A DNA stretch of 59,535 nucleotides, the filler included, from Sandaracinaceae bacterium (GTDB taxonomy: Bacteria; Myxococcota_A; Polyangia; Polyangiales; JADJQN01), in NCBI GenBank assembly GCA_947483975.1. It is 4 parts of 4 records of this genome, joined end to end, with 100 filler letters (N's around TTAATTAATTAA, not from the genome) between each part and the next. Parts side by side here need not be neighbours in the genome. Positions count along the whole stretch, not along the records: positions 15,121 to 29,990 come from CANKOL010000103.1; 3 more parts are not named here. One strand, written 5' to 3'. Position 1 is the stretch's first letter; every line of letters starts with the position of its first letter. Below, piece after piece: positions 12,465 through 16,091 of this stretch. The position numbers were made by a program, and so were the translations under genes. The notes under the pieces are model-generated. The model saw nothing but the letters and a program-made list of their open reading frames with translations, had not been told where the DNA came from and made no database searches.

Positions 12465-13763
12465 TCAGCGGGGGAGCGGGACGCCGGCGTCCGCGCTGCC
12501 GCTGCCGGCGTCTGCACCGCCGCCGTCCCAGACCCCGGAGCACGCGCCGTAGCAGACGCTCGTGCCGGGCACGGCGAAGCAGGTCGTGTGGTCGCAGTAC
12601 TCGCTGGCGCTGCAGCCGGTGTCGTCGAGGCAGAGGCGGATGGGCGGGGGCGGCGGGGGCGGCTCGTTGCAGGCGCAGATCTCGCAGCCCGTCGCGTCAC
12701 GGGCGAAGCCGAACTCGCAGAAGAGCAGGCAGGCGAGCGGCGCGCAGGTCACGCCGGTGCGGCAGGTGCCCCAGCACATGGACGGCGGGCAGGGCGCGCC
12801 GGGCAGGCAGTCGGGCGCCGCGCAGATGGGCATCGAGTAGTCGCAGAAGCCGCCGGGGCCGCACTCGGCGTCGCTCGAGCAGAGGCTGCTCGGGGGGGGC
12901 GGCGGGTTGCACTCGCAGAGGGGGCAGCCCGTCGGGTCGGTGGCGTAGCCGAACTCGCAGTAGAGGCCGCAGAGCTCGCCGGTGCAGGTCGGGGGCGGGT
13001 TGCACGCGCAGAGGGGGCAGCCCGCCGGGTCCACGACGTAGCCGAACTCGCAGTAGAGGTCGCACGCGAGGCCCCCGCAGACGGGCGGCGGGTTGCACGT
13101 GCAGGTCGGGCAGCCGCTCGGGTCGGTGGCGTAGCCGAACTCGCAGTAGAGGCCGCAGCGCGGTCCGGGGCCACAGGTCGGGGGCGGGTTGCACTCGCAG
13201 GTCGTGCAGCCAGCGGCGTCGACGACGTTGCCGTACTCGCACCAGATGGGCGGGCAGGCGAGCGCCACGCAGGTGCTGCCGCAGGTGCCGCTGCTCGCGA
13301 CGGTCGTGTGCCCGCAGGTCGCCTCGCAGGAGTTGCCGTAGGTGAGGCCGTCGGCGCCGCAGACGGGCGAGTAGATCTCCGGGCAGGCGCACGCCTCGCA
13401 CGAGCCGGCGCCGTCGCCGCAGGTCGGGTAGCCGGGGCCGGGCGGGTAGCCCGGGCCGCCGTCGACGTCGTAGCAGCGCGGCAGCACGCAGGTCGCGCCG
13501 ATGTCGCACTGCTCGTCGGTCACGCACATATTGCCGACGTTGCAGGGCCCGCTGTGCGCGACCGTCGCGCCAGCCGCTTCGGCCATGCACGGGTTGGCGT
13601 AGGTCACTCCGTCGTCGCCGCAGACGGGCGCGAACTCCGTCGTGCAGGCTGACGGCGTCGGCTGGACCTCGTAGCAGCCCGCGAGGGCGGTGGCGCCCGC
13701 GAGGGCGGCGAGCAGGGTCAGGAGCCCAGTCTGCGGTCGGTGCGTGTTGATGCGGTGAGCCAT
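12465..13763 (-). CDS. Cys-rich lipoprotein with two Kazal domains and about five antistasin-like repeats
   Basis: Lipobox LAGC; PVCGDDGVTYANPC and PVCGADGLTYGNSC; repeated CxLYCEFGYxxDPxGCPxCxCN. Confidence 0.85.
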   Translation of the reverse strand: MAHRINTHRPQTGLLTLLAALAGATALAGCYEVQPTPSACTTEFAPVCGDDGVTYANPCMAEAAGATVAHSGPCNVGNMCVTDEQCDIGATCVLPRCYDVDGGPGYPPGPGYPTCGDGAGSCEACACPEIYSPVCGADGLTYGNSCEATCGHTTVASSGTCGSTCVALACPPIWCEYGNVVDAAGCTTCECNPPPTCGPGPRCGLYCEFGYATDPSGCPTCTCNPPPVCGGLACDLYCEFGYVVDPAGCPLCACNPPPTCTGELCGLYCEFGYATDPTGCPLCECNPPPPPSSLCSSDAECGPGGFCDYSMPICAAPDCLPGAPCPPSMCWGTCRTGVTCAPLACLLFCEFGFARDATGCEICACNEPPPPPPPIRLCLDDTGCSASEYCDHTTCFAVPGTSVCYGACSGVWDGGGADAGSGSADAGVPLPR

Positions 13764-13978
13764 GGCGATCCTCCGAGCAGGCACTAGAGCACACGCTGTG
13801 CCGCACCCAGTATCCGCGAAGATTTGGCGAGATTGCAAGGGAAGCGCGCGTCGGAGGCAGATCCATGGCGCAGTCGTCTGTGCCGACCTGTGCCAACGTG
13901 GGTGCCCCTCGGCGGGTCGCCGTGACGCGGGCCGCGCGTCTTGCGCGGACGCCGCGCGCCACGTAAGCAGGCGGGGTC

Positions 13979-15020: not shown

Positions 15021-15120
15021 NNNNNNNNNNNNNNNNNNNNNNNNNNNNNNNNNNNNNNNNNNNNTTAATTAATTAANNNNNNNNNNNNNNNNNNNNNNNN
15101 NNNNNNNNNNNNNNNNNNNN
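15021..15120. other. Artificial contig linker
   Basis: N44-TTAATTAATTAA-N44 (stop codons in all six frames). Confidence 0.97.
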
Positions 15121-15266
15121 CCGTCCGCTACCCGGAGGCTGCGTAATGCTGTGTCCCGAGAGACCATCGGTAAGCCGTGTGCGGGAAATCCGCACGCACG
15201 GTTTGAAAGGGGGTCCTGCCCTTTCACTGATGAACTTCATCAAATGAAAGAGCAGGATCTACCAAT
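15121..15266 (+). mobile_element. 3' end of a group II intron (end of the intron-encoded ORF, domain V, domain VI)
   Basis: ORF tail VRYPEAA* ends at 15146; domain V AAGCCGTGTGCGGGAAATCCGCACGCACGGTTT (15172-15204) with AGC triad; domain VI stem TCCTGC..TTTCA/TGAAA..GCAGGA with bulged A near 15261; terminal AY (AAT). Confidence 0.9.
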
Positions 15267-15552
15267 GAGCGGCTCGACGACGATGAAGGCCAGCGAGTTC
15301 AAGGCGCAGTGTCTCGAGCTGATGGATCGCGTCGCCGCGTCGGGCGAGGTGATCGTCATCACGAAGCGAGGCAAGGCGGTCGCGCAGCTCACCGCCTTGC
15401 CGGTGGCGAAGCCGCGGACGCTCGCGGGGTACTTCAAAGACAAGCTCGACTTCATGGGCGATGTGCTCTCGCCTATCGACGTCGCCTGGGGACCGGCGGA
15501 GCCCTCGATCGCGCCGCCCAAGGCGAAGCAGCGCCGCGGAGCGAAGCGGTGA
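15265..15552 (+). CDS. Phd/YefM-family antitoxin (alternative start 15283)
   Basis: MKASEFKAQCLELMDRV..GEVIVITKRGKAVAQL; stop overlaps the toxin GTG. Confidence 0.9.
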   Translation: MSGSTTMKASEFKAQCLELMDRVAASGEVIVITKRGKAVAQLTALPVAKPRTLAGYFKDKLDFMGDVLSPIDVAWGPAEPSIAPPKAKQRRGAKR

Positions 15553-15950
15553 TCCTGCTCGATACGCACGCGATGCTGTGGCGAGCGATGGACGACCGGC
15601 GCCTCGGGCGACGCGCGGCCCGACGGATCGACCAAGCGCTCAACGCGGGCGAGCTCGCGGTGTCGGCGTTTTCGTTCTGGGAGGTGGGCCTGCTGGTGGC
15701 CGCGGGGCGCTTGCAGATGCGCGCCACCGTCGACGAGTTCCGGCTGGCGTCTCTCGCCGCCGGGATCACGGAGGTCCCCGTCGACGGCAGGATCGCGCTC
15801 CTCGCCACGCGCCTCACGGGGATGCACTCGGACCCGGCAGACCGCCTCATCGTCGCGACCGCGCTCGAGAGGGGCGCGACGCTCGTCACCGCCGACGCGA
15901 AGCTCCTCGCGTTGGCCGCCGGGCCGGACTGCCTCGACGCGCAGACGTAG
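15549..15950 (+). CDS. vapC: VapC/PIN-domain toxin
   Basis: ILLDTH, SAFSFWEVG, HSDPADRLIVATA, LVTAD; GTGA translational coupling. Confidence 0.9.
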   Translation: MILLDTHAMLWRAMDDRRLGRRAARRIDQALNAGELAVSAFSFWEVGLLVAAGRLQMRATVDEFRLASLAAGITEVPVDGRIALLATRLTGMHSDPADRLIVATALERGATLVTADAKLLALAAGPDCLDAQT

Positions 15951-15993
15951 AGTCCGCGTGGCTGGCACGGGACGAGCGCCGCACGCGCGGCGT

Positions 15994-16091
15994 GGAGACC
16001 GACCAAGGTTGACCGGAGACCGACCTGACCGGAGACCGACCAAGGTTGACCGGAGACCGACCAAGGTTGACCGGAGACCGACCAAGGTTGA
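15994..16091. repeat. Tandem repeat of GGAGACCGACCAAGGTTGACC (21 bp, about five copies; the second has a 5-bp deletion)
   Basis: Copies start at 15994, 16015, 16031, 16052 and 16073. Confidence 0.95.

Follow-up and report, generated by a model that had tools for sequence, protein, structure and literature searches.

What is a group II intron doing on the start codon of an antitoxin gene? The question is raised by a 59,535-nucleotide (nt) stretch of DNA from the Sandaracinaceae bacterium assembly GCA_947483975.1 (hereafter the window), made of four contigs concatenated with N runs and TTAATTAATTAA linkers between them. Its second contig, CANKOL010000103.1, begins at position 15121, directly after the artificial joint at 15021–15120, and runs within 150 nt into a phd/yefM-family antitoxin gene followed by a PIN-domain toxin gene. 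An earlier reading of the sequence alone (the sequence-only reading) had proposed that a group II intron ends here and builds the start codon of the antitoxin, perhaps coupling toxin–antitoxin (TA) balance to splicing. We put the probability at nearly four in five that 15121–15267 is the 3′ end of a mobile group II intron, roughly 2.0 kb long, that has entered a leaderless phd–vapC pair at the phd start codon.

The identification as a group II intron end held, with a domain V, a long domain VI and the end of a reverse transcriptase (RT) open reading frame (ORF) all present on the plus strand. At 15121–15146 lie the final eight codons of the RT/maturase ORF (...VRYPEAA, then a TAA stop at 15144–15146), recognized by blastn against nine reference introns and by the ORF ends of full-length relatives (...IRYPEAA, then stop). 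The domain V hairpin (15172–15204) has an AGC triad, a GAAA loop and a 2-nt bulge and, in an alifold alignment, is conserved in 37 distinct family sequences. A search with the Rfam Intron_gpII model, which the sequence-only reading had called for, gave an RF00029 match at 15170–15227 (42.5 bits, gathering score 40; E = 5e-05), poorly aligned across the domain VI part. In the minimum-free-energy fold, domain VI is an extended hairpin (15209–15263) in which the A at 15261 bulges out like a branch point; the intron would end 5 or 6 nt after this A, according to the splice register. The 37 distinct family sequences show covariation at the basal pairs of this long hairpin (UA in 25 and CG in 7 at one pair, CG in 34 and UA in 2 at another), and we take it on that account to be the real domain VI. 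In its 3′ strand stands a Shine–Dalgarno (SD)-like AGGA (15254–15257; partner UCCU in the folded ribozyme), 7 nt 5′ of the ATG as previously described; in 31 of the 37 distinct tails an AGG precedes the terminal triplet by 8–9 nt. Read directly, the junction is ...GAGCAGGATCTACCAAT followed by GAGC, with one ATG at 15265–15267 and a second at 15283–15285. The 147 nt at 15121–15267 close a group II intron of ~2.0 kb. They finish with the tail CCAAUG, whose last base is 15267, and the family form of this tail, CTACCA(A/G)TG, is near-invariant.

The phd ORF (15265–15552, plus strand, 95 aa) matched PF02604 with 29.5 bits, the cut-off being 29.8, and most of its listed homologues carry a precomputed PF02604 assignment. 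Among the 83 homologues found by search, eight of the ten closest (66–98% identical) are 95–96 aa long, with full query coverage and the same N-terminal length. In an alignment of 27 homologues, 25 reach at least six residues upstream of the Met encoded at 15283, and at the Met itself 13 sequences have M while 14 have V or I; 15283 is therefore not a conserved start. By the same alignment, this antitoxin family has its conserved native start at the ATG of 15265–15267, which agrees with the start originally assigned and leaves a start only at 15283 unsupported. Were Phd nevertheless to begin at 15283 with signals of its own, the intron would sit in a 5′ untranslated region, and two homologues, P0002 and P0009 (89 aa), are indeed called from that Met. 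We consider this very unlikely: in addition to the longer homologues and the V/I column, the Pfam match begins at residue 6 of the long form, equivalent to profile position 3, no SD-like purine run was seen before 15283, and the intron-less allele described next has its −10 box 8 nt before the upstream ATG, leaving no leader.

That allele came from a comparison of 15121–16000 with the contigs of four lake/freshwater metagenome runs (X denotes a sequencing run). Record 24 of X6 (1391 nt) and record 31 of X7 match the window from 15265 on, preceded by ...CAGATCGCCTCGTGACTATGCTTCGTGACC; the sequence directly 5′ of 15265 reads ...CGTGACTATGCTTCGTGACC. The allele has the form TATGCT-N8-ATGAGC, with ...GTGACC/ATGAGC at the insertion point, which places the intron exactly on the phd start codon: the ATG at 15265–15267 occupies the native phd start position and, in unspliced DNA, is built wholly or to two-thirds from the intron tail, as had been supposed. 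The filled allele recurs in record 25 of X7 (1207 nt), which bridges intron and phd across 15121–15294 with no differences, and record 9 of X4 covers 15121–15268; filled and empty alleles thus both occur in one run, X7. These records also bear on the suspicion that a repeat fragment was joined to the phd contig by an assembly or binning error. It is true that the contig opens within multicopy repeat sequence and that several contigs were concatenated to make the window, but an independent contig across the unaltered junction makes such an artefact scarcely credible.

Word depth is 110–500 on the intron part versus 5–22 on phd, and other contigs share the intron tail but diverge right after 15267–15270, so the intron is multicopy. 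A multicopy element explains the contig break at 15121, much as the sequence-only reading had surmised, and two draft genomes, G320 and G185 (G denotes a genome), have many contigs that begin or end inside the same intron. At the other contig ends of the window, blastn with the nine reference introns found no intron pieces.

Intron-less phd homologue loci carry TATGCT or CATACT 7–8 nt 5′ of the ATG, with GTGACC repeats at the flanks. A promoter/operator abutting the phd start codon in this way has, judged from these sites, the layout of a leaderless gene. Direct TCGTGAC/GTGACC repeats bracket the −10 box and abut the ATG in the intron-less phd allele and upstream of three fetched loci (L081, L001 and L082; L denotes a fetched locus); they are likely to be a Phd operator overlapping the putative leaderless promoter.

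How widespread is the element? The 146–147-nt intron piece matched 76 of 401 genomes at E ≤ 1e-3 in a sample of the GTDB class that holds metagenome-assembled genomes (MAGs) titled Polyangiaceae, and 24 of 401 genomes at E ≤ 1e-6 in a phylum-wide sample of Myxococcota. Given the matches in 76 genomes and the near-invariant tail, the intron end is not a chance resemblance. Five genomes have 7–17 matches each. The closest matches to the window's own piece lie on contigs C74 and C60 of genome G446 (94%, positions 3–97); one G446 match stands at a contig start, a further draft genome broken inside the intron.

A further 59 stretches were fetched. Full-length relatives measure 1979–2075 nt, begin with GTGCG and match the Rfam group-II-D1D4-4 model with 72–98 bits. 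Their RT consists of RVT_1 and GIIM domains (TIGR04416, 409.8 bits); Pfam found no endonuclease domain, and the ORF ends about 35 aa after GIIM. Its neighbours in the PDB are the GsI-IIC RT (3.6e-57), another IIC-type RT and T.el4h. Intron pairs from the same genome are 99–100% identical over ~2.02–2.07 kb; near-identical copies at different sites, together with the filled/empty polymorphism, bear on retromobility and would be compatible with it. The lineage also includes ORF-less derivatives of 731 and 893 nt and deleted remnants of 317 and 325 nt. Such remnants or ORF-less derivatives (L243 on G063:C18, L183/L211 on G073:C35, L191 and L168/L206) still sit on start codons with a tail ATG.

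We then asked where the other copies sit. Among the loci parsed with a domain V pattern (75 of 91), 60 distinct 3′ junctions remained after deduplication, 47 with ATG and 13 with GTG, and at each the tail is in phase with the host ORF. The sequence-only reading had asked whether the 3′ exons of other copies begin at start codons, and the lineage proves to sit at start codons systematically. At 52 of the 60 junctions, the host frame is free of stops for 58 codons or more; the other two frames reach this length at 24 and 33, and every third host position is G/C-enriched in phase with the junction. Of 12 host ORFs scanned against Pfam, three had no match, and several start near profile position 1 (host residue 6 to profile position 1 for both BacA/UppP and adh_short, 9 to 3 for ArsC and 10 to 2 for the TlyA S4 domain; TyrRS is a further case). 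The host genes are unrelated to one another: tyrS, uppP, SDR, GST-like, arsC-like and tlyA-like genes, and many lipoprotein genes.

This variety of hosts bears on the proposal that TA balance is coupled to splicing, which found no support: phd is one of many unrelated leaderless targets. In its fuller form, the intron would be a dedicated regulator of this TA pair, with splicing efficiency setting the antitoxin:toxin ratio. The intron does lie between an autoregulated promoter/operator (TCGTGAC repeats around the −10 box) and phd, so that antitoxin synthesis would now depend on splicing or on the spare AUG. However, the same lineage occupies the start codons of tyrS, uppP, SDR and other unrelated genes; filled and empty phd alleles in one run are what a recent selfish insertion would leave; no other phd homologue locus has intron sequence before its start (13 loci checked upstream); and phd/vapC loci seem to be occupied no more often than other leaderless genes. 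We therefore judge a regulatory role improbable.

On the 5′ side, 40 distinct junctions could be read, with exon ends ATG (23), GTG (16) and ACG (1); L169, whose contig ends inside the intron, was left out. A TAnnnT motif stands 5–9 nt 5′ of the start codon in 38 of the 40 exons, compared with a background of 160 in 38,963 positions (0.41%), and its spacer is 6 nt in 27, 7 in 8, 8 in 2 and 9 in 1. Positions −9 to −4 are G/C-rich, and a G at −17 in 28 of 40 exons resembles an extended −10 element. TAnnnT just before ATG or GTG is the layout of leaderless genes, which these hosts would then be. Ten intron-less uppP orthologues (not counting one more from an unpublished genome) read ...TGTTAGCGTgtccgcATG followed directly by GCGCTGTGG, and in the filled uppP allele (L242) the 5′ and 3′ exons are unchanged on either side of a 2008-nt insert. 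Because the exons are the same without the intron, the −10 box is host DNA; the idea that it belongs to the element was rejected, as the intron-less uppP and phd alleles both carry it. From these sites, the introns appear to form a distinct and prolific lineage, specialised on leaderless start codons.

How might such sites be found? In most copies, the loop of a hairpin at intron nt ~250–262 reads (C/A/G)UCAUG... The fourth base of this loop changes together with the exon base just 5′ of the start codon (CAU-G with c-ATG, CAU-C with g-ATG and CAU-U with g-ATG), and corresponding GTG-type pairings exist (CAC-U with g-GTG in 10 of 10, and CAC-G with c-GTG). All four loop:exon pairs form in 35 of 37 copies, one site being counted twice. 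On this covariation, we assign the loop as exon-binding site 1 (EBS1), which would make the matching intron-binding site (IBS1) only 4 nt long. A subfamily of 11 copies from genome G310 (L214–L224), ~99% identical among the four copies compared, has changed consistently: its loop reads AUCACUUCG, with EBS1 CAC rather than CAU, all ten readable 5′ exons end in GTG, the tail is GUG rather than AUG, and domain VI is 15 nt longer. One IBS1 nucleotide lies upstream of the presumed leaderless transcription start site, which argues for a DNA rather than an RNA target. Moreover, the introns at L197, L198 and L212 are 100% identical although their sites have nothing else in common except the −10 box; therefore either the promoter context is read as well, or selection after insertion is strong.

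If the intron lands directly behind a promoter and a start codon, it might borrow both. In line with this, 28 of 36 full-length copies, when read in phase with the captured start codon, have no stop between intron nt 1 and the end of the RT (630–678 codons). Across 12 representatives (63–96% identical), stop columns number 0 in frame 1 but 14 and 19 in frames 2 and 3, and most of the latter are lineage-specific (12 of 14 in frame 2 and 18 of 19 in frame 3). A conserved motif at the start of domain IV lies 553, 565, 571, 580 or 589 nt from nt 1, all in one phase. Together, these patterns point to selection for an open frame from nt 1, and are most simply explained if RT translation begins at the captured AUG, which is probably 5′-terminal, although an internal Met (..GKREGMA..) could serve as an alternative RT start. 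In L230, L234, L235 and L241, the stop that normally closes the RT frame ahead of domain V is absent, and the frame continues across that domain into domain VI, with its first stop at codon 658 of 663 or 678 of 683.

The tail triplet itself appears to be intron-borne. The introns at L226 (5′ exon GTG) and L227 (5′ exon ATG) share 99.9% identity, and ATG is the last triplet of each. Six ATG-tailed copies sit behind GTG exons, which led us to reject a target-site duplication of 3 bp. A G is repeated at both junctions, so that AT/GGUGCG...CCAAU/G and ATG/GUGCG...CCAAUG/N (slashes marking the splice sites) give the same ligated exons, and the intron would end in AAU if spliced after 15266 or in AUG if spliced after 15267; the proliferating subfamily would end in GU/G or GUG. 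The first register, the one chosen in the sequence-only reading, gives an AY end in most copies and a constant +1 G. The second gives the canonical GUGCG 5′ end and an end 6 nt after the branch A, and tolerates the A-to-G change of the GUG-tailed subfamily. Rfam 3′ ends are inconsistent between copies; in an alifold of domains II–III with uncertain helix assignment, J2/3 is (C)GA, the C of which could pair with a terminal G. We lean towards a 3′ splice site after 15267, without great firmness.

Would the terminal AUG then be used by ribosomes? In the 317-nt remnant L243, which has lost EBS1, domains II–III and most of domain I, the host ORF is open for at least 75 aa to the end of the locus, and the 325-nt remnant L183 precedes a 470-aa ORF. 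At L210, the exon start is ACG and the tail ATG is kept, with a host frame that closes early. Because the ORFs behind L243 and L183 are open and L210 keeps its ATG, these loci speak for a spare AUG that can work unspliced, a step that we infer from open frames. The contrary case is that the terminal AUG is untranslated, that host genes rely wholly on splicing and that the tail is kept for ribozyme reasons, as an IBS1 mimic or a 3′ splice-site determinant. Such a constraint would account for the complementarity of the tail to EBS1 (CAU:AUG), preserved in the G310 subfamily as EBS1 CAC with tail GUG in 11 of 11 copies, and for an AGGA buried in a helix. It would not account for L237 and L241, in which EBS1 is CAC but the tail is AUG, so that the covariation is not strict; nor would it explain why remnants without the necessary domains still precede open host ORFs, or why L210 retains its tail ATG behind an ACG exon, its early-closing frame notwithstanding. 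On balance, we think a purely ribozymic tail unlikely, while granting it real weight.

The explanation that we favour for the whole can now be stated. Intron copies would land directly after the ATG or GTG of genes with a −10 box 6–8 nt upstream, genes whose start codon would lie at or beside the transcription start. The 4-nt EBS1 loop (5′-CAUG-like) would pair with the start codon and the base before it, and promoter context would provide a second cue. The host promoter and the leaderless AUG would probably drive RT synthesis, and the conserved ...AGGAUCUACCAAUG tail would present an AUG that continues in phase into the host ORF. Spliced RNA would again read AUG-phd, and in unspliced RNA the spare AUG could still open phd. 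For the unassembled part upstream of this locus, we predict a GTGCG-type intron behind a 5′ exon ...GTGACCATG, with the junction ...CGTGACTATGCTTCGTGACCATG/GTGCG. The fuller proposition, that the intron parasitises leaderless genes by combining EBS1 with promoter context (possibly a melted open complex), promoter-driven RT and a spare AUG with an SD-like AGGA, is tentative, and we rate it somewhat below an even chance.

A number of observations weigh against this explanation or parts of it. The contig starts at 15121, so the 5′ ~1.9 kb of the intron and its 5′ exon lie outside the window. The junction counts exclude the 16 loci that the domain V pattern missed (L162, L174, L177, L178, L184, L201–L203, L232, L233, L236, L244–L247 and L249); those with visible ends are also ...CCAATG-like, except L236, which is disrupted. 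The host frame closes within 58 codons at eight of the 60 junctions (L163, L167, L175, L180, L210, L230, L238 and L240), and the −10/ATG pattern could partly reflect the survival of harmless insertions rather than active targeting. Of the 36 full-length copies, seven have an interrupted nt-1 frame and an eighth never reaches a stop; the interrupted copies have near-identical siblings with an open frame, and some breaks may be assembly indels. Frame 1 also lacks a signature of G/C at third codon positions (GC3), which fits a stretch dominated by RNA-structure constraints. The tail triplet can pair with EBS1, and in the G310 subfamily the two have changed together, although L237 and L241 depart from this pattern. 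Finally, the AGGA is base-paired in the domain VI helix and AGG is absent from six of 37 tails, so that an SD function of AGGA is doubtful.

Elsewhere in the window, the toxin gene (15549–15950, plus strand) encodes a PIN-domain, VapC-type protein (PF01850, 56.7 bits), and its GTG overlaps the phd stop (GTGA, 15549–15552). Directly 3′ of vapC, at 15996–16090, a ~22-nt unit (GACCGACCAAGGTTGACCGGAGA-like) is repeated in tandem, in about four copies; the X6 and X7 contigs come loose from 15998, which suggests copy-number variation of this unit. On the first contig, the ORF list includes a 457-aa ORF on the minus strand (12465–13838) with a signal-like N-terminus and many repeated Cys-rich modules (..PVCGxDGxTYxNxC.., ..CxLYCEFGY..), which we take to be Kazal-like.

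The ORFs of bacterial intron-encoded proteins are normally confined to domain IV, and we know of an RT ORF overlapping the ribozyme only from organelles. In yeast mitochondrial cox1 introns of the aI1/aI2 type, the RT ORF is in frame with the upstream exon. The lineage described here resembles them in that its RT frame runs upstream through the ribozyme domains in phase with the 5′ exon; it differs in its bacterial host and in that the 'exon' part is the start codon only. If confirmed, it would represent an RT ORF overlapping the ribozyme in bacteria, a retroelement that captures a promoter and a start codon for its own RT, and an insertion made nearly harmless by a built-in replacement start codon. 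Its targeting would mark leaderless genes in Myxococcota, and so compact a rule would be worth trying in intron-based gene targeting. These introns also explain why contigs of myxobacterial MAGs break and why gene starts in them are mis-called, which matters for annotation. Literature searches, whose reach did not extend to the text of Michel et al. 2007, returned no description of this lineage or of leaderless targeting, and the available passages of PMC8919778 do not mention start-codon targeting.

Two known groups come closest. The accessible part of PMC12584367 describes, citing Michel et al. 2007, a monophyletic clade of proteobacterial IIB1 introns located at start or stop codons (Avi.groEL, EcKTE56.groEL), every member of which has a 300–700-nt subdomain Ia. 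The member studied there is 3228 nt long, encodes a CL1 RT with an endonuclease domain and is groEL-specific; at groEL, UA/A becomes UAG through the first G of the intron, and the mechanism of codon targeting is called unknown. The likeness to our introns lies in insertion within or beside an initiation or termination codon that the intron end rebuilds. By contrast, nt 1 to the start of domain IV here spans 537–573 nt with all of domains I–III inside, and the 5′ end is followed only by a ~40-nt variable hairpin, with no subdomain Ia. Our introns are ~2.0 kb rather than ~3.2 kb and, judged from Pfam domains, encode RVT_1 and GIIM without the endonuclease domain. As far as that account goes, the lineage appears to share the start-codon habit of the IIB1 clade but to lack its defining features.

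Group IIC introns, according to the same source, recognize a short IBS1–EBS1 pairing plus DNA context and occupy many different insertion sites per genome. Very short pairing (4 pairs in 35 of 37 copies), context recognition and many sites are likewise found here. Whereas IIC introns use a terminator hairpin or attC, the context here is a −10 box and a start codon separated by a G/C-rich 6–8-nt spacer with no T run, in sites for which no dedicated hairpin search was made; the ribozyme is also larger, with its ORF beginning at intron nt 1. Where the IIB1 intron is specific for one gene, identical copies here occupy many genes through a 4-nt IBS1, and identical introns in different genes expose the rule: one base and the start codon read via EBS1, with a −10 box 6–8 nt upstream.

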